IMG/VR virus record: IMGVR_UViG_651053023_000001
Span: 1-64,000 of that record
DNA length: 64,000 bases
Reading direction: 5' to 3' (one strand)
Origin: a virus
Lineage: Duplodnaviria > Heunggongvirae > Uroviricota > Caudoviricetes
Shown: positions 2,071 through 63,946 of the stretch, piece after piece
Layout: each line of letters begins with the position of its first letter
How positions within the stretch are numbered: position 1 is the first letter of the stretch
Notes under the pieces: model-generated
Databases searched by the model: none
What the model was told of the DNA's origin: nothing
What the model saw: only the letters and a program-made list of their open reading frames with translations
Made by a program: the position numbers and the translations under genes

Positions 2071-3183
2071 TCATTCAGCCGCCACCGGTTTTAACAAGCC
2101 AGCATCGAGCAGTTTACGCGTCAACCACTGCTGGCCTTTACCCGTTAATTGAGGCGTCAGCCGTATCTGATAGCCATCTTCATCATCCAGCACCACTTCT
2201 TTCACTGTGAAATATCCGGCGTTTATGTACTGCTGAAACGGTACATTTTTACGTCCGCCGGACGCAATCAGGATGCCGTTCTCCCGTAACCAGGCAAACA
2301 GCGCATTTTGCTTAAGTCCAACAACCTTTGCAAAATTCCCAATCAGGATCCCCTTAGCCACTGATACCCGGTCGGCAAAATCGACCTTAGGGGCTGCGGC
2401 CACCAGCTGCTGATTTAGCTGGTGGGCTTTCTGTTCCAGAAGTTGCTTTTGTTCAGCCAGCTCGGCAGCCAGGCGCAGAGCTTCGGGAAGCGTCTGAGGG
2501 ATTGCGACCGGTTGCTGTTCTTTTTGCCGGAAGTAGCTGTCTTCCAGTTTTTCAAAGAATGCCCATGCCTGATCGGTTTCGATCATTTTAGCGTGGCGGG
2601 CTGCGCCGCGTTCCGTCCAGAGAGTGAGGTTTCTGGCGTTCTTACCAACAGAGTTACTAAAAGTAACTCTGTTCTTAAATTCTCTTAATTTTGAACCAGT
2701 TAAAAGAAAGTAGTGTTTACCTTCTTCAAAGCGATCGGAGTTGCAAGACAAATTTTTACGAATATTGCCTTCATCGGTTCCGTACCCCTTAGCAAGAGTT
2801 TCGGTTGTTACGACACGTACTCCCTGCCATTCCAGAACGGGAATTTCATCCGGCTGATTTTGAACAACCACCAGCTCCGATTCCTGAACTGAAGGTGCAT
2901 GAATTTTTTCTGATTTAACGTTAGTTGCTTTCATTCTGTGTGCCTCCTTGCGTGCTTCGGCTGCGACGGTTGCGTAATTCAGATGACCCTGTTCGAGCAG
3001 GTATTCGCGGATATCAGACAACAGGATACGGTGAACCGCGTGTTTGTCCTTTCTCCGGTAAAGTTGTTTGGTGATCATGAAGTAGTTGGCAATAACGCCT
3101 GGTATATCCCTGGTGCTGATACAGGCAGTGTGCTGTTCAATTGCCTCGATCATCTCTTCACGGGTGACTAATGACGTTCTCAT
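2071..3183 (-). CDS. antirepressor-like protein, copy A (ORF6N/Bro-N-like N-terminal region plus KilA-C/ANT C-terminal domain)
   Basis: 370 aa; C-terminal ~150 aa (PQTLPEALRLAAELAEQK...KVDFADRVSVA...GKGQQWLTRKLLDAG) shared with the canonical Ant (47170..48213) and with KilA; preceded by an icd-like ORF overlapping by ATGA. Confidence 0.8.
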   Translation of the reverse strand: MRTSLVTREEMIEAIEQHTACISTRDIPGVIANYFMITKQLYRRKDKHAVHRILLSDIREYLLEQGHLNYATVAAEARKEAHRMKATNVKSEKIHAPSVQESELVVVQNQPDEIPVLEWQGVRVVTTETLAKGYGTDEGNIRKNLSCNSDRFEEGKHYFLLTGSKLREFKNRVTFSNSVGKNARNLTLWTERGAARHAKMIETDQAWAFFEKLEDSYFRQKEQQPVAIPQTLPEALRLAAELAEQKQLLEQKAHQLNQQLVAAAPKVDFADRVSVAKGILIGNFAKVVGLKQNALFAWLRENGILIASGGRKNVPFQQYINAGYFTVKEVVLDDEDGYQIRLTPQLTGKGQQWLTRKLLDAGLLKPVAAE

Positions 3184-3401
3184 AGCCCCTCCTGAGCAGA
3201 AGCGTTAACAGGGAGGCACCAGTAACTGAGAGAATTGCGCAAATCGGTAGAAAAGCGGGCAGAGAAAATACAGGGAGCATCCGGAAGCTGAGAACGTGCC
3301 TCATCTTCTGTTGGTGCGATAACGAAGTGATAGTGACGTTTCTGGCAGGAGTAAAAGCGCCAGATAAATTCAGGGCGTGCGCAAGGATTGGCATTAACCA
3401 T
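3180..3401 (-). CDS. Icd-like small protein, copy A
   Basis: 73-aa ORF MVNANPCARPEFIWRFYSC... overlapping the ant start; same arrangement as icd-ant in the canonical immI copy. Confidence 0.7.
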   Translation of the reverse strand: MVNANPCARPEFIWRFYSCQKRHYHFVIAPTEDEARSQLPDAPCIFSARFSTDLRNSLSYWCLPVNASAQEGL

Positions 3402-3444
3402 AGTTACGGCCTCATGTACAGGTTTAACAACCTGCTACCCGCTG

Positions 3445-3525
3445 CTAAACGGGTGGCAGGACGTGACGGGGTTAGCAGACTGGCGTACATGAAACCAGCA
3501 GGCCGAAGCCTCCCCATCACGCCCC
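3445..3525 (-). ncRNA. c4-like antisense RNA, copy A (approximate bounds)
   Basis: Conserved leader block upstream of icd carrying a 6-nt element (ATGTAC in RNA sense) complementary to GTACAT overlapping the icd ribosome-binding site and to a second GTACAT further upstream. Confidence 0.4.
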
Positions 3526-3702
3526 ACCATAATTCGGGCGTAACGCGGTTTTACGGACATAAAAATACCGCAATATCGGAAATCTGCGGTTGTCCGCATG
3601 TACATTCAGGCTGCTAAACCCGGTCGCAGAATTTGCTACGACGTAGGAACTATAAGCCTGAACAACAGGAAGATCAATAGTCTGGCGTCCAATAGTAGTT
3701 TA

Positions 3703-3735
3703 TTTGCTCTAATAAATCAAATTTATTAGAGCAAT
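3703..3735. promoter_or_regulatory. overlapping head-to-head pair of C1 operator sites
   Basis: TTTGCTCTAATAAATCA on top strand and ATTGCTCTAATAAATTT on bottom strand, forming a palindrome. Confidence 0.65.
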
Positions 3736-3994
3736 AACAATCTAGTTGAATGTTTCCTCTCTGAGGTTGCAATGTGCACACTTAGTGCCTTATTTGTATG
3801 CACTAATAAATATATTATTTTTAACAATAAATAATTGACAACTGACAAGTGACTTCAGTCAGAATCATCACACGCCCGGTACGGATGGATCCCTTTTCAA
3901 ATATTCCATGGACGGCACAGTCTGAGTACCGGGCGCTACCTTAAGTTGTATTGCTAAGCCGCCGCTGGTGGCTTTTCTTTTTTGTAGGGGCGCT

Positions 3995-4636
3995 ATGGAT
4001 AAGAAAATATGCGTTGTTTCGATGAGCGTCGGCAAACCGGCGTCAATGACTGCTGCATGGATCAACAACGAGCTGATAATGGCTGAGCGGACCAGCTACC
4101 CTGAACGCCGCCGCGATATGGAACTCCAGCTGCTGCGCGAATTGCGAGAAAAAGAGGAAAAGGGTTTTATCGTGCTGGTGGAAGAGGAAAACAGCTTTAT
4201 TACTGGTCGAGTTGGCCAGCGTGTAAGGTTGCGCGATCCCTTCATGAACGGCAGGCCGGTACTAATTGAGGCCATGCAGATTTATAAGGAGCTGGAACGC
4301 CAGAAAGCAATCAAGTTACCGCGCAAGGAATCCGGCAAATACATCCTCCACCAAAGCATCTTCGATTCCGAACACGACAAAAAAGGCGATGAATTTTTCA
4401 ACATCAACTGGAGCGAAATAACGACAGAGCATGTTCTGACGTTACTATGTTGCTTTGCGACGGAATACAACAACGTTGCCAGCGCAGACTACATCAGGGC
4501 AATGGCTGGAGAAGTTGAGGCACGCCAGGAACCATCGTTACTAAGCCCTCTGATTAACATAATTCGCGGCACACAGAGACTTGCGGAAAAAAGCGTTCCA
4601 CACGGAATCTTAACTGGGAAGGGAAACTATTTTTAA
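3995..4636 (+). CDS. hypothetical protein (core of the inverted-repeat structure)
   Basis: ORF from ATG at 3995 (track ORF starts 3968) with AGGGG 5 nt upstream; no family recognised by eye. Confidence 0.5.
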   Translation: MDKKICVVSMSVGKPASMTAAWINNELIMAERTSYPERRRDMELQLLRELREKEEKGFIVLVEEENSFITGRVGQRVRLRDPFMNGRPVLIEAMQIYKELERQKAIKLPRKESGKYILHQSIFDSEHDKKGDEFFNINWSEITTEHVLTLLCCFATEYNNVASADYIRAMAGEVEARQEPSLLSPLINIIRGTQRLAEKSVPHGILTGKGNYF

Positions 4637-4669
4637 CATCCCCAAATCCTTTTGGGGAACAACTCATTC

Positions 4670-4987
4670 TTACAATAGCTGCCCCATACATTGTCTCCAG
4701 GCACTCCCCTCATTACCGTTATCAAGAAACGTAGAGGTTGCATAAGGAATGCCTCTGATTTGTGTTGATGTGAATGGACCATCAGACGTCGAAGTTGTGC
4801 GCAGTTTTGATGTAAACTCGTAATTTCCACTGATGCCTTTCTCTGCCAGAGCTTTTGATTTTGTGATAACTAAATCTGCACATTTCTCTGCGGCTACATA
4901 TTGCGGGTCTTTTTCAGCTTTTCCGGCACATGCAGTTATCGTTAAAACGATAGCTGCGGCTAACAAATTACCTAGTTTCATCTGCAT
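4670..4987 (-). CDS. small lipoprotein (signal peptide with lipobox LTITAC)
   Basis: 105 aa; N-terminal MQMKLGNLLAAAIVLTITAC is a typical lipoprotein signal peptide with cysteine; two further Cys in the mature part. Confidence 0.55.
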   Translation of the reverse strand: MQMKLGNLLAAAIVLTITACAGKAEKDPQYVAAEKCADLVITKSKALAEKGISGNYEFTSKLRTTSTSDGPFTSTQIRGIPYATSTFLDNGNEGSAWRQCMGQLL

Positions 4988-5086
4988 ACCTTATTAAGTG
5001 CATTAAAAACAGTAGGTTGCCAAGGTTTTAAACAAATTTCAATTCTCCATGACGCTCAACATGAGCAAAAATAACACACAACCCTC

Positions 5087-5120
5087 ATTGCTCTAATAAA
5101 TTTGATTTATTAGAGCAAAT
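5087..5120. promoter_or_regulatory. overlapping head-to-head pair of C1 operator sites
   Basis: ATTGCTCTAATAAATTT (perfect consensus) at 5087..5103 and its partner ATTTGCTCTAATAAATC on the bottom strand at 5104..5120. Confidence 0.65.
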
Positions 5121-5294
5121 ATCCTACCATTGCGCATAGCCCTATTGATCTCCTTACCGTTCAGGCTTATATTCATGCCGTCGTAGCAAATTCTGCGACC
5201 GGGTTTAGCAGCCTGAATACTTACGCGGACAACCGCAGATATCCGATATTGCGGTATTTTCATGTCCGTATAACCACGTTACGCCCGAATTATG

Positions 5295-5375
5295 GTGGGG
5301 CGTGATGGGGAGGCTTCGGCCTGCTGGTTTCGTAAGTGCCAGTCTGCTAACCCCGTCACGTCCTGCCACCTGTTT
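5295..5375 (+). ncRNA. c4-like antisense RNA, copy B (approximate bounds)
   Basis: Same conserved block as copy A but the 6-nt element is GTAAGT, complementary to ACTTAC at the icd ribosome-binding site (5404..5410) and at 5219..5225. Confidence 0.4.
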
Positions 5376-5420
5376 AGCAGCGGGTCGCAGGTTGTTTTAT
5401 CAACTTACGAGGCCGTAACT

Positions 5421-5642
5421 ATGGTTAATGCCAATCCTTGCGCACGCCCTGAATTTATCTGGCGCTTTTACTCCTGCCAAAAACGTCACTATCACTTCGT
5501 TATTGCACCAACAGAAGATGAGGCCCGCTCTCAGCTTCCTGACGCCCCATGTATTTTCTCTGCCCGCTTTTCTACCGATTCGCGCAATTCTCTCAGTTAC
5601 TGGTGCCTCCCTGTTAACGCTTCTGCTCAGGAGGGGCTATGA
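5421..5642 (+). CDS. Icd-like small protein, copy B
   Basis: 73 aa from ATG 5421 (track ORF 5292..5642 carries an unsupported N-terminal extension); one residue differs from copy A; overlaps the ant start. Confidence 0.7.
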   Translation: MVNANPCARPEFIWRFYSCQKRHYHFVIAPTEDEARSQLPDAPCIFSARFSTDSRNSLSYWCLPVNASAQEGL

Positions 5643-6757
5643 GAACGTCATTAGTCACCCGTGAAGAGATGATCGAGGCAATTGAACAGCACACTGCCTG
5701 TATCAGCACCAGGGATATACCAGGCGTTATTGCCAACTACTTCATGATCACCAAACAACTTTACCGGAGAAAGGACAAACACGCGGTTCACCGTATCCTG
5801 TTGTCTGATATCCGCGAATACCTGCTCGAACAGGGTCATCTGAATTACGCAACCGTCGCAGCCGAAGCACGCAAGGAGGCACACAGAATGAAAGCAACTA
5901 ACGTTAAATCAGAAAAAATTCATGCACCTTCAGTTCAGGAATCGGAGCTGGTGGTTGTTCAAAATCAGCCGGATGAAATTCCCGTTCTGGAATGGCAGGG
6001 AGTGCGTGTAGTGACAACCGAGACTCTTGCTAGAGGGTATGGGACAGAAACAATCCGTATTCGCCAAAATCATCATGAGAACAAAGTACGCTTTGTTGAA
6101 GGGAAGCACTTTTTCAAAGTTGAAGGAGAATCATTGCGCGAGTTGAAGCACAGAGTAGCTTTAAACTACTCTGTAAAAATTGCTCGCAATGTTCGCTCAC
6201 TCACCCTCTGGACAGAACGCGGCGCAGCCCGCCACGCTAAAATGCTCGAAACCGATCAGGCATGGGCATTCTTTGAAAAACTGGAAGACAGCTACTTCCG
6301 GCAAAAAGAACAGCAACCGGTTGCAATCCCCCAGACGCTTCCAGAAGCTCTGCGCCTGGCTGCCGAACTGGCTGAACAAAAGCAGCTTCTGGAACAGAAA
6401 GCCCACCAGCTAAATCAGCAGCTGGTGGCCGCCTCTCCTAAAGTCGATTTTGCCGACCGGGTATCAGTAGCTAAAGGGATCCTGATTGGGAATTTTGCAA
6501 AGGTTGTTGGTCTTAAGCAAAACGCGCTGTTTGCCTGGTTACGGGAGAACGGCATCCTGATAGCGTCCGGTGGACGTAAAAATGTGCCGTTCCAGCAGTA
6601 CATCAATGCGGGATATTTCACGGTGAAAGAAGTGGTGCTGGATGATGAAGATGGCTACCAGATACGGTTGACGCCTCAATTAACGGGTAAAGGCCAGCAG
6701 TGGTTGACGCGTAAACTGCTCGATGCTGGCTTGTTAAAACCGGTGGCGGCTGAATAA
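5639..6757 (+). CDS. antirepressor-like protein, copy B
   Basis: 372 aa; identical to copy A over the first ~131 aa and the C-terminal ANT/KilA-C domain, with a divergent patch between. Confidence 0.8.
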   Translation: MRTSLVTREEMIEAIEQHTACISTRDIPGVIANYFMITKQLYRRKDKHAVHRILLSDIREYLLEQGHLNYATVAAEARKEAHRMKATNVKSEKIHAPSVQESELVVVQNQPDEIPVLEWQGVRVVTTETLARGYGTETIRIRQNHHENKVRFVEGKHFFKVEGESLRELKHRVALNYSVKIARNVRSLTLWTERGAARHAKMLETDQAWAFFEKLEDSYFRQKEQQPVAIPQTLPEALRLAAELAEQKQLLEQKAHQLNQQLVAASPKVDFADRVSVAKGILIGNFAKVVGLKQNALFAWLRENGILIASGGRKNVPFQQYINAGYFTVKEVVLDDEDGYQIRLTPQLTGKGQQWLTRKLLDAGLLKPVAAE

Positions 6758-6790: not shown

Positions 6791-6904
6791 AAATGTCTCT
6801 TCAGCACATTACCGAAGTTCAATCTTCAACCAAGAAGTGGACTCGCATACGATTATCGCAATAAAATACTTGAAGTTTTATAAACTGTGAGTATCATTAC
6901 CCAT

Positions 6905-7360
6905 ATGAAAACATCCTATTTAACTATATTGGCTTTCCATATTCGCGATTTTCGCGAGAAGCATGGTGTTACTCAATCAGACATTGCATCTGGCCTTGGG
7001 ATAACAAGTGCCGGCTGGGGAAAAATTGAAAATGGTAAGTCCTCTCTCTCTGTAGAGAATATGATGAAATTCTGTAAAATCATTAATATTGATGCAACCA
7101 TACTTCTTGATATTTCCACAAAATCGGCAAAAAACTTAATCAAATGTGGATGGAGTGTATCTTATTCTCCTGTTGAGGATGATAATTTAATAGACGGAAA
7201 AAATATATTTGCTAAAACACATGGAATGAATAACGTTATGAGGAAATTTATAGACGGGAAACTTGGAAGTGTTTTAGACAAAGAATTTGATGATATTATT
7301 ATGAAATATGCAACATTTTATATGGTTGTAGCTAAAAATCTAAGAGATGACTTGATTTAA
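6905..7360 (+). CDS. XRE-family helix-turn-helix protein with C-terminal domain of unknown function
   Basis: HTH signature GVTQSDIASGLGITSAGWGKIENGKSSLSVENMMKF; AT-rich codon usage; start taken at ATG 6905 (track ORF begins at GTG 6887). Confidence 0.6.
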   Translation: MKTSYLTILAFHIRDFREKHGVTQSDIASGLGITSAGWGKIENGKSSLSVENMMKFCKIINIDATILLDISTKSAKNLIKCGWSVSYSPVEDDNLIDGKNIFAKTHGMNNVMRKFIDGKLGSVLDKEFDDIIMKYATFYMVVAKNLRDDLI

Positions 7361-7375
7361 AAATGGAGTGTACAT

Positions 7376-8128
7376 ATGGCATACAGAAAAGACAGCGATC
7401 TTGAATTCCTAGCTAAATGTAGCGACCGTGATCTTGATGATTTAGTTAACCTATTGATTTATGATAACGATGGCAAAAAAAGATGGACTGAAGAGTTATC
7501 TAACAATCGACAATATAAGGAATTTGCACCAAGACATAGCGTATATTGGAGAGAAATTGCTGCTGAAATTCAATGTTATGGTGGAAATACCATAGCAACT
7601 CTCTTGCGTGGTGGTAAAGGGGTCTGCTACAGAGAAATTCTCATTGATGTATGCAATAAGCTAAAGGTTAATTTCAATGCCAAGAGCCGAATAGAGGTTA
7701 TTGAACAAAATCTTCTATTAAAAATTCTCAGCGACTCTCTAGATAACATGTCATCCGAAGATATAAAAGTTTTTGCCATGGAACTTGGATTGGATGAAGT
7801 TACAAGATTTACTCCTGAGGCAGTTCTATCTGCCTTCCAATATATTTTCAGGGCCGGCGGTTTCAGATCTTATCAGGTAACTCTTAAATTTGCGAATCTT
7901 TTACTAAAAATTTTAATTGGACGCGGTTTAACACTCGCAGGTAATCAAATACTCGTAAAAGCATTATCTATTTTAACAGGCCCAATTGGTTGGGCTATAA
8001 CAGCCGCATGGACCATTGTAGATGTGGGAGGAACTGCTTATCGAGTAACAATTCCTGCTGTTATTCAAGTTGCTGTACTAAGGGCGAAAGTCAATAATAA
8101 TATTAAAGACAGCGATATTACCTTGTGA
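7376..8128 (+). CDS. hypothetical 250-aa protein with C-terminal hydrophobic segment; candidate effector of a two-gene accessory cassette
   Basis: ATG with GGAG 7 nt upstream, 15 bp after the HTH gene; hydrophobic stretch LTGPIGWAITAAWTIVDVGG near the C-terminus; AT-rich. Confidence 0.65.
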   Translation: MAYRKDSDLEFLAKCSDRDLDDLVNLLIYDNDGKKRWTEELSNNRQYKEFAPRHSVYWREIAAEIQCYGGNTIATLLRGGKGVCYREILIDVCNKLKVNFNAKSRIEVIEQNLLLKILSDSLDNMSSEDIKVFAMELGLDEVTRFTPEAVLSAFQYIFRAGGFRSYQVTLKFANLLLKILIGRGLTLAGNQILVKALSILTGPIGWAITAAWTIVDVGGTAYRVTIPAVIQVAVLRAKVNNNIKDSDITL

Positions 8129-20986: not shown

Positions 20987-22073
20987 TCGTATACAGAATG
21001 AATCTGCCTGGTTAGCACTGATAGAACAGTATAAAGACAATTGGGAACTGGCAGCGAAAGAGTTGCTTGATATTGAGTTAACACCTCATCAAGCAAAAAT
21101 TATTAACGCGATAAAGAACACCGGAGCCAAAGTCACTGCCACCACACCACATGGTATTGGGGAAACCTCTATTGTGGCAGTGATTAGCATCCTGCAAACA
21201 ATACTGTATTCGTGTTCCCGTACAGTGGTTGTTTCTCCTGCTATTAACGATAGTCGAAAAACAATAATTGACTATATGTTCCGTTATTGGGAGCGAGTTA
21301 CCCAAAAACACCCTTTTCTTGGCAATCATTTCAGAATGCACCCTGACAAAGGGTTGGTGCATATCAGTGAAACATGGGGATGCGTCTATATAACCTATTG
21401 TCTGAATAACGAAGTGTCTCTGGCTGGTTTTACTGGACCGCACGATCTTTTCATCGTTATTAACTCGGCGGAAATCAGCGATCGCGCTCATGCAGTGATA
21501 ACTGGCAATTTAACCAATTATGACTCGCGCCTGCTGTTGCTGTCGAAACCATCGGAACGCGAGAAAGGGTACTTTTATGATTCGCATCACCGGTTGGCCC
21601 ATAGTAAAAACAATCCTGCTGGTTTTTTCACGGCGATAACTCTAAACACAGAGGATTCGCCTCTCGTTTCTGAAGCATATCTTGAATTCAAAGCCAAAGA
21701 GTTTGGTGGGCGCAATAGCGATGAATATCGCCGATTGATCTTGGGGAAATTTCCCGGGATTCGGGAGTTGATGGAAAAGTCATCTGTTCCCCGTAATATG
21801 CACTTCACAATGACTGACGGTAGTAAATGGGTAGTGCCTACGATCGTGATCGCCAAACACCATGCGAAACATCACGCTCAAAAACACAACTCCAGCACAT
21901 TAGACTGGCTGAAGGCCTATACAATACCGTTATTCTCGGCAAACCATAACGCTATAGCTGAATGGGCTAAACAAATCCCCTGGCAGGATGTGGCTGAAGA
22001 GGCATTTGTCGAAAAACCTCCGAGAGATTTGCACGAGCACTGTTGGCTGACATCAGAAAAGAGCTTCTCGTGA
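20979..22073 (+). CDS. hypothetical protein with weak resemblance to a degenerate terminase-type ATPase fold
   Basis: 364 aa; segment TPHQAKIINAIKNTGAKVTATTPHGIGETS...LFIVINSAEIS loosely resembles terminase ATPase Walker A/B regions but lacks the canonical lysine. Confidence 0.5.
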   Translation: MINRIQNESAWLALIEQYKDNWELAAKELLDIELTPHQAKIINAIKNTGAKVTATTPHGIGETSIVAVISILQTILYSCSRTVVVSPAINDSRKTIIDYMFRYWERVTQKHPFLGNHFRMHPDKGLVHISETWGCVYITYCLNNEVSLAGFTGPHDLFIVINSAEISDRAHAVITGNLTNYDSRLLLLSKPSEREKGYFYDSHHRLAHSKNNPAGFFTAITLNTEDSPLVSEAYLEFKAKEFGGRNSDEYRRLILGKFPGIRELMEKSSVPRNMHFTMTDGSKWVVPTIVIAKHHAKHHAQKHNSSTLDWLKAYTIPLFSANHNAIAEWAKQIPWQDVAEEAFVEKPPRDLHEHCWLTSEKSFS

Positions 22074-22076
22074 GGT

Positions 22077-22105
22077 AAAAATCCCGCCGATTGGCGGGAT
22101 TTCTT
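22077..22105. terminator. bidirectional terminator (AAAATCCCGCC-gatt-GGCGGGATTTCTTT)
   Basis: Perfect stem flanked by an A-run and a T-run, between convergent transcription units. Confidence 0.6.
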
Positions 22106-45218: not shown

Positions 45219-45274
45219 TTAACAGATTCTACGAGTTGTCATTTGTGACAGTATGCTCGCAATCGTAGTGATTA

Positions 45275-45814
45275 CTACCACCAACTGCTAGCTTTCTTCT
45301 CTCTAGCTTTTCCTTCGCTTTGCAGTAAATCTTTACTTCCTGTAGAAATATTTCTATTTGCATCAGCCTCAGACTGAATTACATCTGTCTTAGCTGCTCT
45401 CTCCTTCAACTCCTGCTCTATAAAATCGTTTTCTCGCTGGACACGAGCCGCTTTTGCTTGCAGTTCGAGTTTCATGCTTTCGAGTTGCAGCTTGCGAAGC
45501 TCATCCTCATAAGCTTGATCTCGCTTCTTGTCATTTGCTAGCTCGGCTTCTCGTTTCGCTCTACGTTCATTTTCTGCAGCAACACGCTGTTTTTCGCGTG
45601 CAGCAGCGGCAGATGCTGCTTTTTCTCTTCTAATACGTTCAGCTTGTGCTTGTTGGCGAATAAGTTCTTTTCTGGCATCCTCAGCTTGCTGCTCTTTAGC
45701 TCGCCCTTCATTTTCCGCTTGAGCAATAGCAGCAATTTGACTTTGCAACGAGTTAGCCAAGGCAGTGCCTACACTAAACGTAGAAAAGATTAGAAATAAA
45801 ATAATTTTATTCAT
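45275..45814 (-). CDS. secreted charged coiled-coil protein (TolA domain II-like Ala/Glu/Lys/Arg repeats)
   Basis: N-terminal signal peptide MNKIILFLIFSTFSVGTALA followed by ~140 aa of highly charged helical repeat; AT-rich. Confidence 0.55.
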   Translation of the reverse strand: MNKIILFLIFSTFSVGTALANSLQSQIAAIAQAENEGRAKEQQAEDARKELIRQQAQAERIRREKAASAAAAREKQRVAAENERRAKREAELANDKKRDQAYEDELRKLQLESMKLELQAKAARVQRENDFIEQELKERAAKTDVIQSEADANRNISTGSKDLLQSEGKAREKKASSWW

Positions 45815-45817
45815 AAA

Positions 45818-46339
45818 TTATTTCTTTTCTGGACAAGTAGCATTTGGCTGAATTCGAGTTTCATTATCTTTAGTTGAAATAAGCACAGCAAGCCCCGTTG
45901 TAAACTGGCATGCTTTACCAACTTGAGTTGAAGTGAACACCTTAGTTCCTTCTTTATAAGTCAGTGAAACACCTTCAACAATTGTTTTATCACTAACCAA
46001 AGAACCAGCCGCTGCACCAAGAGCCGCACCACCAGTACCGCCAGCTACAGCACCCAGTGTCGATGTGCCTTTAACATTATAACCGGCAACGCCCCCAGCA
46101 ACAGCTCCCAGTACCGCACCAAATGTCTGTGCCGCTTCTTTATTAGCTTTATTATCAACTTTCACTTTAGCTGGAAGCACAGAGATAATATTGACTGTCT
46201 TTGTTTCCTGCTTCGAATTCAATTGAGCGGTATCATAAACATCGGCAGCATAATCAGCACCGCTAGATTGACACCCAGAAAGAAGAATTGCAGATACAAC
46301 AAGAGCGCATAAAGTATACTTTTTAGACATAAGAATCAT
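45818..46339 (-). CDS. glycine-zipper lipoprotein (SlyB/Pcp-like)
   Basis: Lipobox ILLSGC; glycine-zipper GAVLGAVAGGVAGYNV...GAVAGGTGGAALGAAAGSL; AT-rich. Confidence 0.55.
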   Translation of the reverse strand: MILMSKKYTLCALVVSAILLSGCQSSGADYAADVYDTAQLNSKQETKTVNIISVLPAKVKVDNKANKEAAQTFGAVLGAVAGGVAGYNVKGTSTLGAVAGGTGGAALGAAAGSLVSDKTIVEGVSLTYKEGTKVFTSTQVGKACQFTTGLAVLISTKDNETRIQPNATCPEKK

Positions 46340-46620
46340 CCCAGAAAAACAAAAACCGGCGAGAAGTTACCACGAGAACGGAAAGTAAACAAGAATACTC
46401 CCATTGACTTATATCAATTAATCAACTTTTTATAAGCTATCCCTAACTTATTGTGTATAGCTGAAAAGTCAGAGACAAGTTCACCATCTGCATTATTTCT
46501 TAAGTTAATAGTTTATTGCTAACTTAATTTATGCATCGACTATTGATATCCATCTTAAAGTTACAATATCCCTCTGCATTATTTTTCATCACAAATAATA
46601 TATCTATTGCACGACACTAA

Positions 46621-46637
46621 CCTGCTCTAATAAATTT
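46621..46637 (+). promoter_or_regulatory. C1 operator-like site upstream of the canonical immI module
   Basis: CCTGCTCTAATAAATTT, 2 mismatches to consensus. Confidence 0.5.
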
Positions 46638-46824
46638 GTATTTTTAAGTCGCGAATGCTATCTTTTCGCATCATATTGACCTTTTAATCGTTCAGGCTTA
46701 TAGTTTCGCCGTCGTAGCAAATTCTGCGACCGGGTTTAGCAGCCTGAATGATTGTGCGGACAGCCGCAGATATCCGATATTGCGGTATTTTTGTGTCCGT
46801 AAAACCGCGTTACGCCCAAATTAT

Positions 46825-46905
46825 GGTGGGGCGTGATGGGGAGGCTTCGGCCTGCTGGTTTCACAATCGCCAGTCTGCTAACCCCGTCACGTCCTGCCAC
46901 CTGTT
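46825..46905 (+). ncRNA. c4: c4 antisense RNA of the canonical immI region (approximate bounds)
   Basis: Conserved leader block with element ACAATC complementary to GATTGT at the icd ribosome-binding site (46933..46939) and at 46750..46756. Confidence 0.45.
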
Positions 46906-50053: not shown

Positions 50054-50103
50054 TAGATTGCTCTAATCTGGAGTCACCTGGCGTTTTCAGTTTGAGGTCG
50101 GAG

Positions 50104-50349
50104 ATGCAATCTGATTTTTTACAGTTAGCGATCGCTTTTGCAGGATATGTTTGTATTGGCTTCTGTGTATACATGATCAGCCGAAAAATGCTTGTCGATA
50201 TCGACCGCAAAGAACAAGCAGAGGAGATCTTAGAATGGATTTTCTTTGGCGCGGTCTGGCCATTAGGGATCATGTTTGCTGCAACATTTCTTCTGATGTG
50301 GATATTCACCCTTCCAGGTGATTTCTATAGAAAAAAAGCCAGACATTGA
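50104..50349 (+). CDS. small membrane protein (rlf-region gene by position)
   Basis: ORF from internal Met of track ORF 50023..50349; two hydrophobic segments. Confidence 0.35.
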   Translation: MQSDFLQLAIAFAGYVCIGFCVYMISRKMLVDIDRKEQAEEILEWIFFGAVWPLGIMFAATFLLMWIFTLPGDFYRKKARH

Positions 50350-50429
50350 TACAATCGTTGCGGGTGCTTGAGGCTATCAGCTTCAGGCATTACCCGAAAA
50401 GCAGATAGAAGAAAGCCCCAGATAACATT

Positions 50430-50500
50430 ACGCGTCCTGCAAGACGCTTAACATTAATCTGAGGCAATATCTATGCTTAGCATACGTAGATTAGCCTCTT
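50430..50500 (-). ncRNA. putative Sok-like antisense RNA (position inferred)
   Basis: Inferred only from hok/mok architecture, where the antitoxin RNA is antisense to the mok start region; not delimited from sequence. Confidence 0.25.
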
Positions 50501-50679
50501 ACCGACCAAAAGGTCAAGGAGTAGCAGGCTATGAAGCAGCAAAAAGCGATGTTAATCGCTCTGATCGTCATCTGTTTAACCGTCATTGTGACGGCACTGG
50601 TAACGAGGAAAGACCTCTGCGAGGTACGAATCCGAACCGCCCAGACGGAGGTCACTGTCTTCACAGCCTACGAATCTGA
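50473..50679 (+). CDS. mok: Mok-like overlapping reading frame
   Basis: 68-aa ORF overlapping nearly all of hok in another frame, as in hok/sok loci. Confidence 0.5.
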   Translation: MLSIRRLASYRPKGQGVAGYEAAKSDVNRSDRHLFNRHCDGTGNEERPLRGTNPNRPDGGHCLHSLRI

Positions 50680-50686
50680 AAGGTAA
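50531..50686 (+). CDS. hok: Hok/Gef-family type I toxin (51 aa); not in the supplied ORF track
   Basis: Translation MKQQKAMLIALIVICLTVIVTALVTRKDLCEVRIRTAQTEVTVFTAYESER matches the Hok pattern (single TM helix, LTRK.LCE.R.R....EV..F.AYES). Confidence 0.85.
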   Translation: MKQQKAMLIALIVICLTVIVTALVTRKDLCEVRIRTAQTEVTVFTAYESER

Positions 50687-50759
50687 GAGACCTGGCGGGG
50701 AGAGATCCTCGCCACTCTTCGTGTGTCAGGTATCCTCAATGCACCCTTTCCTCTCCAAA

Positions 50760-50787
50760 TAAAAAAGCTCCCGAAGGAGCTTTAAAA
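50760..50787. terminator. bidirectional terminator (AAAAAAGCTCC-cgaa-GGAGCTTTAAAA)
   Basis: Perfect stem flanked by A- and T-tracts between hok and the convergent tail-gene block. Confidence 0.6.
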
Positions 50788-61328: not shown

Positions 61329-61682
61329 TTACCGTGCCGCTTTGTTTAATTCATCAAGAACAGAATCAGGAACCAAAGCGGCGACTGCGCTGGCTGTGCT
61401 GGCCTTATTTGCTGATGCTTCCGCAAGCGCGGTACCGATAGCATGGTTATAAGCAGTTATGGCTACGTTGGCGCTTTCATTCGCTCGTTCATACTGCTGT
61501 TGTAACGCAGTTGTGAGTGCTGTTGTCTGGTTGAAAACAACCCCAAACTGTTCAGTTGCTACTTTCAGAGATTCAATTTGCTCTTCTGTTAGTGCTGGTG
61601 GGGGAGTGGCAGTGCCGCCGCCTGAACCAGAGCCTGACGAGCTTCCTGAGCCAGTGTTAAGGGTCTGGTTAATCTCCCCCAT
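61329..61682 (-). CDS. hypothetical Gly/Ser-rich protein
   Basis: 117-aa ORF with N-terminal GSGSSSGSGSGGG tract. Confidence 0.45.
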   Translation of the reverse strand: MGEINQTLNTGSGSSSGSGSGGGTATPPPALTEEQIESLKVATEQFGVVFNQTTALTTALQQQYERANESANVAITAYNHAIGTALAEASANKASTASAVAALVPDSVLDELNKAAR

Positions 61683-61795
61683 AGCAGCGACTAAACTTGA
61701 TCGATAGGAATTTAAATCCCCAAAAGACTAAAAAAGCACCACAAAACGGATGTTTCTTCAACACCCCTTGTGCACCATATGAGCGGAAACGACTA

Positions 61796-63169
61796 TTAAA
61801 CAGGATGACACTGATTGATACAGGGTATGAATGGCGGTTTTTTGCTCCGTTTCCGGTAAAATGGACGCAACTTCCCCTCTGCGGCTCTCAGCCGCACACC
61901 TGCTGTCGTGCCAAGTCGCTCATGCATCAGGACCAGCTCTGCCAGTCGGTAACCCCGCTTCAGCCCCGTAAAACGCATCTGACTTCCGCACAGAATGCAC
62001 TTCAGCGGGTCAACCTTCAGTAACCTCTGATACATCCCTCTCCACCTGATTTGCATCGCCGTTTTTCTCACCGTCTCCGTTATGACGTACACAACTTCTT
62101 CCAGTAACCGGCGCTTCACCGGACTCAGGAAACCGTAGTACCTCACCATACGGAACCCCTTATCTGCTACATGCCAGGAGAACCTTTCCATGAACTCATC
62201 TCCACTCATCAACAGGTATTCTTCCCGTTTTGTACGGTGACTGTTGTAACGCAGACCGATTTCATCCTGACCGGCATAATGCTCCAGCCGACTCATCGGC
62301 ACCGGTGGCTTTTTCAGGTAAGAGCCGAAGTACACCGCCACATGTGTGGCGTTATCCATCACCCTGGATATGTTGACATTCCAGCCGCGGCGGTAATGCG
62401 TGTCCAGGAAGCAATTCCAGTCCCGTTTGCTGTTTCCTTCCACTGCCAGTTCATCCGGTATCACCAGCTCCGGGTATTTCCGGGACAGTAGCCGCGTTAT
62501 CCGGTAACGCCACATGCTCATCACCTTACGGGCGTAAAAATGAAGATTTTTCCAGGTGTGGCCCGACGTCACACCACCGGCAGTTGTCGATAAATGGATA
62601 TGCGGATGCCACTGCTGGTCACGCCCCCATGTGTGGATCACCGTGAATATCCCCGGCTCCACATCTGTCTGATGGCAGATTTCCAGTATCACATCCGCTG
62701 CAATGCGGCTCATCTCTGCCAGTAACCACCGGTTGTGGAACACCAGGGACCAGTACTGGCAGGGAAGTGTGAACACAATATGCTGCCACGGGCAGTCGGG
62801 GACCAGGCTCAGCAGATACTGTATCCACTGTGCGCCAGCCTTCACCCCGCAGTGCGGACAGGAGCGGCTTTTACACCGGAAGCAGACCTTTTTGGTGTGG
62901 CAACAGTCCGGTGACGAACAGCACCATTGCGTGTAGCCCATCAGCGTGGTCCCGCATGCCATGATTTTTGTCACTGACTCAGTCACCACCGGACGCACTG
63001 AACCTTCCGGCTGTTTCTCCAGCCAGTTAAGCCAGCGGTTACCCTGCTGAAAAATGTCGGCAAAACGGGGAAGCATCAGAAGGCGGGGGGACTCCGTCCG
63101 GCCAGTGAACCGTGCCACACTCCGGGCAGTACATGCCGCCGGCGCTGATACCGGCAAGAATGGTCGCAA
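61796..63169 (-). CDS. tnpA: IS91-family (Y2 HUH, rolling-circle) transposase
   Basis: 457 aa; N-terminal Cys-rich zinc-binding region (CCSSPDCCHTKKVCFRCKSRSCPHCG), HUH motif HPHIH, conserved RYYGFL block; true start may be internal. Confidence 0.75.
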   Translation of the reverse strand: MRPFLPVSAPAACTARSVARFTGRTESPRLLMLPRFADIFQQGNRWLNWLEKQPEGSVRPVVTESVTKIMACGTTLMGYTQWCCSSPDCCHTKKVCFRCKSRSCPHCGVKAGAQWIQYLLSLVPDCPWQHIVFTLPCQYWSLVFHNRWLLAEMSRIAADVILEICHQTDVEPGIFTVIHTWGRDQQWHPHIHLSTTAGGVTSGHTWKNLHFYARKVMSMWRYRITRLLSRKYPELVIPDELAVEGNSKRDWNCFLDTHYRRGWNVNISRVMDNATHVAVYFGSYLKKPPVPMSRLEHYAGQDEIGLRYNSHRTKREEYLLMSGDEFMERFSWHVADKGFRMVRYYGFLSPVKRRLLEEVVYVITETVRKTAMQIRWRGMYQRLLKVDPLKCILCGSQMRFTGLKRGYRLAELVLMHERLGTTAGVRLRAAEGKLRPFYRKRSKKPPFIPCINQCHPV

Positions 63170-63440
63170 ACTCCCGCTCCGTGCAGCGGGCTATTTCAGG
63201 ATACCCTTCGTCATCGACACGAACAAACCAGAAGACCAGCTTTTTGTTTCCGGCATCCACAAAGAAGGGAATATTCAGGTCTGCGCAGCACTCAACGGCA
63301 TCGTCAAAATTATCAAAGCGCAGAGCTTCTGCGTCTTCTTCGTCAAAGAAGTCATCGTCGTGAAGCTTCACGACATAGCGGGGAAGTTTGCTTCTTTGAG
63401 GGGCAGGTTTTCGTTTACGGGGTTTAGCTGAACGGGACAT
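63039..63440 (-). CDS. small ORF upstream of and overlapping the IS91-family transposase gene
   Basis: 133-aa basic/acidic ORF with CxxC pair; position matches the small accessory ORF of IS91-type elements. Confidence 0.4.
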   Translation of the reverse strand: MSRSAKPRKRKPAPQRSKLPRYVVKLHDDDFFDEEDAEALRFDNFDDAVECCADLNIPFFVDAGNKKLVFWFVRVDDEGYPEIARCTEREFATILAGISAGGMYCPECGTVHWPDGVPPPSDASPFCRHFSAG

Positions 63441-63946
63441 ATAACTACCTGAAAGACAATGATATTGTCTGTTTTTATAACGGTAATTTCAGGCCATGAC
63501 AAGCCGCAGCCGCCAGGCTGCCTACTCGATGTATTAAGCGCGTTTACAGCGTCCTCAAGCGATTTAGTAATAGTCACATCACCAATGGCAATAGAGATCG
63601 GCAGTTCTGATACTTCTCGCTCATTAGCACGGCAGTAAACATCCCAACCAATATCGAGTTGAAGCAGCATTGACAGATCTGCATAACCAGCCAACAGGTC
63701 CGCGTGCTTAGTTGCCAGTTCTCCAATGTTCGTTAAGCCGGTTGTGGTTGTTCTGATCGTTGAAACATAGCTGGTAATAGTGTCGGGATAGACAATTGTA
63801 TCCAGAATTAATCCGGTCAATTCTTCTGCAAGCAGTTTTGCTGTGTTAGCACTGTTTCGTGCCGATGTTATGGCACCAGGTGTTTTCATCCCACCGGCGG
63901 CGGCCAATTTTTTATATGCGGATAACTGGTAGTCTTTTTCCAGCAT
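63368..63946 (-). CDS. hypothetical protein, possibly 3'-disrupted by the IS91-family insertion
   Basis: 192-aa ORF whose 3' portion runs into the presumed IS end and overlaps the IS-internal ORF. Confidence 0.35.
   Translation of the reverse strand: MLEKDYQLSAYKKLAAAGGMKTPGAITSARNSANTAKLLAEELTGLILDTIVYPDTITSYVSTIRTTTTGLTNIGELATKHADLLAGYADLSMLLQLDIGWDVYCRANEREVSELPISIAIGDVTITKSLEDAVNALNTSSRQPGGCGLSWPEITVIKTDNIIVFQVVICPVQLNPVNENLPLKEANFPAMS

Follow-up and report, generated by a model that had tools for sequence, protein, structure and literature searches.

What occupies the 1.8-kb stretch close to the right-hand end of this P1-like phage-plasmid, how it came to be there and what it did to the gene it entered are the questions raised by the locus, which lies in a window of 64,000 nt (the whole stretch of viral DNA that was analysed; positions 1 to 64,000 of IMG/VR record IMGVR_UViG_651053023_000001). 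We conclude with near certainty that a complete IS91 isoform of 1829 bp (61700..63528, with orf121 and tnpA on the minus strand) inserted into upfB of the phage-plasmid by rolling-circle (single-strand) transposition. The element is of an ordinary kind that has been catalogued before, and it represents no new system.

The extent of the element was defined by comparison with P1 genomes, which are uninterrupted across the insertion point. The window is not colinear with them: against P1 isolate OP279344 it carries a clean 1829-bp insert, and the boundaries of that insert reproduce exactly the start given in the preliminary description (61700–63500) and place the end 28 bp further out, at 63528. 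At the left junction the window reads ...ACTAAACTTG joined to ATCGATAGG, and uninterrupted P1 reads ...ACTAAACTTG joined to ATGTATTAAGC; the arrangement CTTG–element–ATGTATT thus stands against CTTG–ATGTATT, with zero bases duplicated or lost and no target duplication. The CTTG target tetranucleotide (61696..61699, plus strand, which is the transferred “bottom” strand) adjoins the 5′ side of the oriIS end, and CTTG and GTTC are the targets that IS91 prefers by experiment (PMC13181058). A longer, 6-nt target with AT following the tetranucleotide, suggested by the first three sites, was rejected, as AT occurs in only 18 of 68 distinct flanks. In nearly all of these 68 flanks a purine stands at +1, directly 3′ of the insertion site; the known 4-nt target would be extended by this position. 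The element is present once in the 64-kb window and differs in composition from its surroundings (53.1% G+C vs 44.9–46.4% in the flanks), and the same upfB–terIS junction is found in the Logan assembly of read set SRR4179081.

The two ends are dissimilar, with oriIS on the left beside the 3′ end of tnpA and terIS on the right, and they carry palindromes in subterminal positions in place of long terminal inverted repeats. The oriIS end (61700..61772, plus strand; terminus ATCGATAGG) contains two short imperfect palindromes, GGA-N7-TCC at 61707–61719 and a second at 61740–61772, in agreement with the published description. Since its fold energy is no better than that of shuffled sequences (z 0.02), a stable hairpin at oriIS is rejected and the assignment of this end rests on sequence conservation, its terminus being identical in copies L002, L003, L004, L008 and L009. 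The terIS end (63506..63528, plus strand) consists of the hairpin GCAGCC-GCCA-GGCTGC (63506–63521; fold z about −2.6) followed by CTACTCG, so that the element closes with ...GCCTACTCG at 63528; this terminus is identical across all copies examined. Its last four bases (63525–63528) are the cleavage tetranucleotide CTCG, the IS91-specific terIS cleavage site (PMC13181058). Four other copies have both termini in common with the window copy, and their targets are GTTC or CTTG. Furthermore, both promoters that have been defined experimentally for IS91 (PMC13181058) have predicted counterparts here, judged by motif presence: the −10 box TATAAA of Porf121, the principal promoter driving orf121 and tnpA, at 63474..63479, and the −35 box TTGCCG of the weak internal promoter PtnpA at 63152..63157 (both minus strand).

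The tnpA gene (61796..63076, minus strand) encodes a Y2-HUH transposase of 426 aa. Its open reading frame spans 61796–63169 (minus strand, 1.37 kb) when taken from the first TTG, with the real start at ATG 63076 and the stop at 61798–61796. The preliminary description had recognized an HUH/Y2 transposase with an N-terminal zinc-binding Cys cluster and an HPHIH motif, and each of these features is borne out: the protein matches Pfam Y2_Tnp (PF04986, 1e-38) and Zn_Tnp_IS91 (PF14319, 1e-18), contains nine Cys in the segment from residue 41 to residue 76, and has HPHIH at residues 157–161 (62608–62594) and two catalytic tyrosines in YFGSY at residues 249–253 (62332–62318). It also scores 287.4 bits against the NCBIfam equivalog model NF033538 (transpos_IS91), for which the cut-off is 125. 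The sequence is exactly that of AEJ60209.1 (“IS91 transposase”, from an E. coli UMNF18 plasmid) and of the PIR IS91 entry. The usual length of TnpA is 395 aa; among the 37 full-length copies examined, only the window copy has 426 aa. Relative to the copies checked, an extra T (an A on the plus strand at 61913/61914) replaces the last 7 TnpA residues by 38. The altered residues begin at 389 and lie outside Pfam Y2_Tnp, and the NCBIfam IS91 model ends at residue 365. Going by the 47 kDa of the His-tagged protein, recent experiments apparently used the 395-aa TnpA and the current reference apparently has it; in this respect the window copy differs from most copies and would differ from the reference as well.

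The small overlapping upstream ORF that the preliminary description had noticed is an orf121 variant of 133 aa (63039..63440, minus strand), which keeps the C105-X2-C108 pair and overlaps tnpA by 38 nt. It agrees with Orf121 of other copies over about the first 118 residues, until the last few codons. The run of C before the usual TGATG is one C short compared with the 121-aa copies, and because of this missing base orf121 reads 38 nt past the tnpA start and the TGATG sequence, a one-base overlap of orf121 stop and tnpA start, is absent from the window copy. In published work this overlap is typical and not obligatory, occurring in 80.6% of IS91 isoforms; its loss is ascribed to indels of 1–2 nt in homopolymer runs, and its removal cut Porf121-driven expression of a lacZ reporter in the tnpA position 2.9-fold (PMC13181058). 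Long forms made up 17 of the 134 IS91 isoforms surveyed, a 133-aa stop-loss form among them, and the window copy fits that description of long-Orf121 isoforms exactly (Fauconnier et al. 2026, PMC13181058). An Orf of 133 aa was found in 3 of the 37 full-length copies examined (the two further copies being metagenomic), and that of the window copy is exactly WP_001398189.1 and AEJ60039.1, the latter from a different UMNF18 plasmid. More broadly, many independent assemblies contain a 133-aa form, with cluster member P0018 present on 62 contigs.

In the comparison with IS91 itself, two proxies stood in for the reference X17114.5. One was a set of copies that RefSeq lists as “IS91-like element IS91 family transposase”, and the other was the PIR IS91 TnpA, to which TnpA of the window copy is identical. 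Full-length identity to the RefSeq-annotated copies is 97.5%. The description of the locus as an IS91-family rolling-circle element of about 1.8 kb thus holds on the strength of the Pfam and NCBIfam assignments and of matches at 97–98% to IS91-annotated copies. A chance feature is excluded because more than 2000 plasmid records carry matching DNA (90–98% identical) annotated as IS91. Searches of PLSDB, complete RefSeq E. coli genomes, IMG/VR and 107 metagenome contigs gave no identical full-length copy, the best match reaching 98.2%, and a search of 50,697 phage records turned up no full IS91. Like the IS91 reference, the window copy is about 1.83 kb long with orf121 followed by tnpA, has both an oriIS and a terIS, and shows a CTTG target, a CTCG terIS site and no target duplication; it departs from the reference in its 133-aa (vs 121-aa) Orf and the lost TGATG overlap. 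IS91 (X17114) was reportedly first described on E. coli alpha-haemolysin plasmids.

Membership of another branch of the family was weighed against this assignment. IS1294, IS801 and ISCR share with the window copy the Y2-HUH transposase fold, GTTC-type tetranucleotide targets adjoining oriIS and one-ended transposition. They differ from it in their distant sequences, in a terIS site of GTTC instead of CTCG and in having no orf121, a gene that to our knowledge has been reported for IS91 only. The window element, in contrast, possesses orf121, a terIS ending in CTCG, two oriIS palindromes, 97.5% DNA identity to annotated IS91 and a TnpA equal to the PIR IS91 protein; moreover, both of its ends are present, whereas ISCR elements usually have no recognisable terIS. 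The presence of orf121, the CTCG terIS and the DNA identity rule out IS1294, IS801 or ISCR, and we regard any of these identities as virtually impossible; no observation spoke against IS91 itself.

The insertion split a single gene. Excising 61700–63528 in silico restores a UpfB of 262 aa, 256 of whose 262 residues are identical to UpfB of P1 isolate OP279344, and the position of upfB matches the P1 order repA, upfA, mlp/ppfA, upfB. The preliminary description had placed the element between two genes and suspected disruption of a backbone gene; the disruption is confirmed, and the two supposed genes prove to be the halves of upfB. On the left, the 3′ fragment (61329..61699, minus strand, by comparison with P1) includes the Gly/Ser-rich 117-aa ORF (61329–61682), which is UpfB residues 146–262 restarting at an internal ATG. 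On the right, the 5′ fragment of about 140 codons (63529..63946, minus strand) continues as a chimeric ORF to 63368. The resulting 192-aa ORF (63368–63946), whose 3′ end does run into the element as had been noted, comprises ~140 N-terminal UpfB residues followed by ~52 residues read from the terIS end. In GenBank this fragment is the hypothetical protein AEJ60210.1, whose start is 19 codons further upstream and just past the end of the window. Thus, upfB now consists of an N-terminal ORF, truncated and chimeric, and a C-terminal piece that lacks a promoter, and the insertion shows that the gene is dispensable for plasmid maintenance. The insertion point corresponds to P1 64350/64351, and the predicted internal ppfA promoters (P1 63984–64010 and 64200–64229) are left intact because they lie downstream of it.

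Two IS91 lineages have contributed to the window copy, a hybrid with its crossover at 63042–63055: its terIS–orf121 part is about 99.4% identical to the O111-type element of plasmid pIDPH8234-2, and its tnpA–oriIS part is about 99.8% identical to ETEC-type IS91. IS91-type elements are also found in upfB of pIDPH8234-2, pE2855-2 and the ETEC1731 and ETEC1730 plasmids, with the same orientation and termini, at 92.5% (O111 type) or 97.5% (ETEC type) identity to the window copy. Most of them lie at a GTTC 209 bp from the window site. In upfB, each of two tetranucleotides has been entered by different IS91 lineages, and the orientation never varies. Unlike the simple insertion in the window, two of these elements are accompanied by a loss of backbone next to terIS, amounting to 1.8 kb or 7.8 kb, and terIS abuts hrdC or ban in two relatives. 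Nothing specific on IS91 in upfB of P1-like elements came up in a search of the literature. It is conceivable, though less likely than not, that upfB is a recurrent IS91 landing pad whose occupants remodel the backbone through terIS-side deletions or one-ended events. With equal reserve, the hybrid isoform, whose orf121 is uncoupled from tnpA and whose TnpA is extended at the C-terminus, may be an active variant with altered control of termination.

The shared sites and the hybrid structure bear on how the copy arrived. It is conceivable, if unlikely in our judgement, that the insertion was inherited or recombined from a P1-like plasmid already carrying an IS91-type element at this CTTG and was later remodelled by another IS91 copy: the element of pIDPH8234-2 (92.5% identical) occupies exactly the same CTTG, and the window copy joins an O111-type terIS–orf121 part to an ETEC-type tnpA–oriIS part. 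However, converting tnpA–oriIS alone in place would require the tract to stop inside the element's final 21 bp, and a hybrid that had formed beforehand and transposed as a unit would fit the finding of the identical 133-aa Orf on another UMNF18 plasmid. Independent hits at this position are also plausible, because CTTG is a preferred target and upfB has no other CTTG on that strand.

The single-base changes in both genes invite two further readings. Both affect short runs (CC vs CCC, TT vs T), and the matching GenBank proteins come from the 2011-era genome of E. coli UMNF18, a period whose assemblies were prone to homopolymer errors. The 133-aa Orf and 426-aa TnpA might then be sequencing errors in a standard element with 121-aa and 395-aa products, which we judge improbable: the PIR IS91 entry is an independent record of the 426-aa sequence, and 133-aa forms recur in P0018 (62 contigs), in two metagenome copies and in the published list (PMC13181058). 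If the changes are real, they could instead have left an immobile or crippled copy, a relic stranded in upfB with uncoupled expression and an altered TnpA C-terminus. The rarity of the 426-aa TnpA (1/37 full-length copies) and 133-aa Orf (3/37), the lack of an identical second copy in the collections searched and the lowered Porf121-driven expression on overlap removal (PMC13181058) would all suit such a relic, but we think it doubtful. The altered TnpA residues (from 389) are outside Pfam Y2_Tnp and the NCBIfam IS91 model, neither the catalytic motifs nor the two ends are damaged, and the PIR IS91 entry is the same 426-aa sequence. In addition, the exact 133-aa Orf on a different UMNF18 plasmid (AEJ60039.1) suggests that the isoform has moved. 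Finally, Orf121 is an inhibitor of IS91 transposition (PMC13181058), so its weakening need not reduce mobility.

For the complete IS91 isoform, published IS91 work points to the following route. TnpA would nick after the tetranucleotide at oriIS, and the plus strand of the window would be displaced 5′ to 3′ up to CTCG at terIS. A single-stranded circle with the junction CTCG/ATCG would then be inserted 3′ of CTTG or GTTC in a new target; a bottom-strand circle of IS91 has been described (PMC13181058). Orf121, expressed from Porf121 in the terIS end, would damp transposition and sharpen termination. With oriIS on the left and terIS on the right, any one-ended read-through would run rightwards, into the P1 backbone and not the replicon, and failed termination would carry the 5′ part of upfB, uhr, hrdC and dmt. 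The relevance to cargo acquisition raised in the preliminary description stands as potential only, since the event in the window is a simple insertion that brought no cargo with it.

IS91 has long been studied, and the transposase of the window copy already had a GenBank annotation, on an E. coli UMNF18 plasmid; little is new in the element itself. For phage-plasmid annotation, the two flanking “genes” should be merged into one disrupted upfB. An IS91 carried by a phage-plasmid could in principle shuttle between plasmids and a packaged phage genome and take neighbouring DNA along through one-ended transposition.

From lox onwards, the window is colinear with phage P1, and in P1-type genomes the flanks of the element region were matched while its interior was not. 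Alignment to OP279344, an uninterrupted P1 isolate, reaches 61701 and resumes at 63524, with a 7-bp overlap on the P1 side that is junction ambiguity (the same P1 bases can be matched by both flanks) rather than duplicated window sequence. At this site OP279344 reads ...ACTAAACTTG/ATGTATTAAGC and the window reads ...ACTAAACTTG/ATCGATAGG ... GCCTACTCG/ATGTATTAAGC, so the insert spans 61700–63528 (1829 bp). A preliminary description had placed an IS91-family element at 61700–63500; its start stands, and the comparison with P1, which is not colinear across this clean insert, moves its end to 63528. The element, present once in the window, lies directly 3′ of CTTG with no base duplicated or lost, and its G+C content is 53.1% against ~45–46% in the flanks. 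The event seen here is a simple insertion, at a canonical target, of an IS91 that looks intact.

The P1 counterpart of the insertion point (P1 64350/64351) falls within upfB, in the P1 order repA, upfA, mlp/ppfA, upfB, (upfC), uhr, hrdC, dmt. In silico excision of 61700–63528 yielded a 262-aa ORF identical to UpfB of OP279344 at 256 of 262 residues. The two ORFs previously described on either side of the element do flank it, but as parts of this one gene: the “Gly/Ser-rich gene” (61329–61682) encodes UpfB residues 146–262 from an internal ATG, and the “192-aa ORF” (63368–63946) encodes ~140 N-terminal UpfB residues followed by ~52 translated from the right end of the element (terIS), as anticipated by the proposal that it runs into the element and that a backbone gene is disrupted. 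Predicted ppfA promoters inside upfB (P1 63984–64010 and 64200–64229) lie downstream of the insertion point and are untouched.

The region holds a single long minus-strand ORF (61796–63169, counted from the first TTG), whose tnpA product is 426 aa when read from the ATG at 63076. This ORF matches Pfam Y2_Tnp (1e-38) and Zn_Tnp_IS91 (1e-18) and the NCBIfam equivalog transpos_IS91 (287 bits; cut-off 125), with nine cysteines clustered between TnpA residues 41 and 76, HPHIH at residues 157–161 and the two-tyrosine motif YFGSY at 249–253. The upstream ORF, a 133-aa form of orf121 (63440–63039, minus strand), matched nothing in Pfam or NCBIfam. The earlier reading of a Y2-HUH transposase with a small overlapping upstream ORF is therefore sound, as is the family assignment: full-length copies annotated “IS91-like element IS91 family transposase” are 97–98% identical to the window element, and the PIR entry for IS91 transposase is the same 426-aa sequence.

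We compared this anatomy with that published by Fauconnier et al. 2026 (PMC13181058), in which IS91 is alone within its family in carrying orf121 upstream of tnpA. There, IS91 is also described as preferring CTTG and GTTC targets adjoining oriIS, being cleaved after CTCG at terIS, having two imperfect palindromes at oriIS and one at terIS, and using a bottom-strand single-stranded circle as its functional intermediate. The window plus strand reads 5′-CTTG/oriIS ... terIS-CTCG/-3′ and hence corresponds to the published bottom strand. The terIS hairpin (63506–63521) folds well (z about −2.6); the oriIS palindromes (61707–61719 and 61740–61772) are present and fold no better than shuffles. The Porf121 −10 box TATAAA (63479–63474) and the PtnpA −35 box TTGCCG (63157–63152), as defined in PMC13181058, are in place.

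The window copy is peculiar in three respects. First, it is a recombinant of two IS91 lineages that share only 90% identity: its left part (61700 to ~63041) is 99.8% identical to IS91 of ETEC plasmids (e.g., NZ_CP122822), its right part (~63056 to 63528) shows 99.4% identity to the other lineage, that of O111:H8 plasmids, and the crossover falls at 63042–63055, just inside tnpA. No isoform identical to this hybrid was found in any collection searched. Furthermore, the C-run ahead of the usual TGATG junction is one C shorter than in 121-aa copies, which extends orf121 to 133 aa, with a 38-nt overlap with tnpA and C105-X2-C108 kept, whereas the ETEC copy lacks two C and fuses both ORFs (516 aa). 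Both forms occur among 134 IS91 isoforms surveyed; there, removing the overlap lowered Porf121-driven lacZ (at the tnpA position) 2.9-fold, and Orf121 inhibits transposition, with fewer one-ended events (PMC13181058). Lastly, an extra T in tnpA (A on the plus strand, 61913/61914) exchanges the final 7 residues found in the usual 395-aa protein for 38 others. The altered segment falls outside both the Pfam domain and the NCBIfam model, the latter ending at residue 365. The 426-aa form was confined to the window copy among 37 full-length copies collected, and the 47 kDa stated for His-tagged TnpA (PMC13181058) fits 395 aa (computed 47.3 kDa) rather than 426 aa (50.8 kDa). Both indels sit in short homopolymers and may be sequencing errors, although the 426-aa PIR entry and numerous independent records of the 133-aa product speak for the existence of both forms.

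The element is already known and its position already annotated in GenBank; the preliminary description was correct apart from gene structure. The exact 426-aa TnpA is AEJ60209.1 (“IS91 transposase”), which E. coli UMNF18 encodes on a plasmid of 103,130 bp. The neighbouring protein AEJ60210.1 falls into one 90%-identity cluster with the chimeric 192-aa ORF; at 211 aa, it is as long as that ORF would be if extended by 19 codons, to a start slightly past the window end. Very probably, therefore, the window belongs to this plasmid or to one nearly identical to it. The upfB–terIS junction also occurs in Logan assembly SRR4179081. Both termini are exactly shared with four other copies, flanked by GTTC or CTTG, and related DNA occurs in >2000 plasmid records and 1933 of 5426 complete E. 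coli genomes. Full IS91 was found in none of 50,697 phage records. In that collection, upfB is uninterrupted in all P1-type records, and only Escherichia phage phi456 (OR339795.1) carries an IS91 fragment (298 bp, 90.6% identical to the tnpA 3′ region).

The window departs from P1 elsewhere as well. The res-mod-IS5 region is replaced by two extra immI-like copies, an HTH protein (6887–7360) and a DUF3944 protein (7376–8128). The extra copies (2071–6757; 80–86% identical to P1) are inverted, one on each side of mat, and bring the immI-like modules to three with the canonical c4-icd-ant region; each extra copy comprises an ANT/ORF6N antirepressor ORF and a C4 antisense RNA (3449–3534, minus strand; 5288–5373, plus strand) together with the a1/b1 targets of that RNA, and the canonical C4 lies at 46819–46904. 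The stretch that replaces rlfA/rlfB (50068–50760) contains a sok antitoxin RNA (50362–50536; Rfam RF01794, 110 bits), from which a hok/sok post-segregational killing module is implied. Two further non-P1 stretches lie at 20988–22104 and 45247–46622: isaA-IS1-isaB gives way to a 364-aa ORF without a Pfam match, and most of the sim superimmunity region to a DUF5384 protein and one that is weakly TraT-like.

Among complete RefSeq E. coli genomes, other P1-like plasmids likewise have upfB occupied by an IS91-type element, always in the same orientation (comparison loci L002, 3192–5021; L003, 3192–5018; L008, 3401–5228; L009, 3192–5020). That of pIDPH8234-2, of the O111 lineage, occupies the same CTTG (window 61696–61699); there, 1.76 kb has been deleted and terIS is joined to hrdC. 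In five plasmids, representing both lineages, the element sits at a GTTC 209 bp from that CTTG (window 61487–61490), and in one of them, ETEC1730, a 7.8-kb deletion joins terIS to ban. This pattern suggests a site at which such elements land repeatedly and delete DNA next to them, and it may reflect target preference, since upfB has only one CTTG, and six GTTC, on that strand; alternatively, the elements may have been inherited, with later recombination between IS copies. In 68 distinct flanks (loci L002–L120 and window 63529), some of them deletion or one-ended junctions rather than original targets, the first base 3′ of the terIS CTCG was A in 41, G in 24, C in 3 and T in none, a strong purine bias directly past the 4-nt target that the IS91 literature covered does not mention.

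Following that literature, TnpA would nick at oriIS, the plus strand would be displaced up to CTCG, and the resulting circle would insert 3′ of CTTG or GTTC. One-ended transposition had been put forward as relevant to cargo acquisition; no foreign DNA accompanies the window copy, and what stands is a potential directed at the right-hand backbone genes. If termination at terIS failed, the DNA co-mobilised would be rightward (the 5′ part of upfB, uhr, hrdC and dmt) and not the left-hand replicon.
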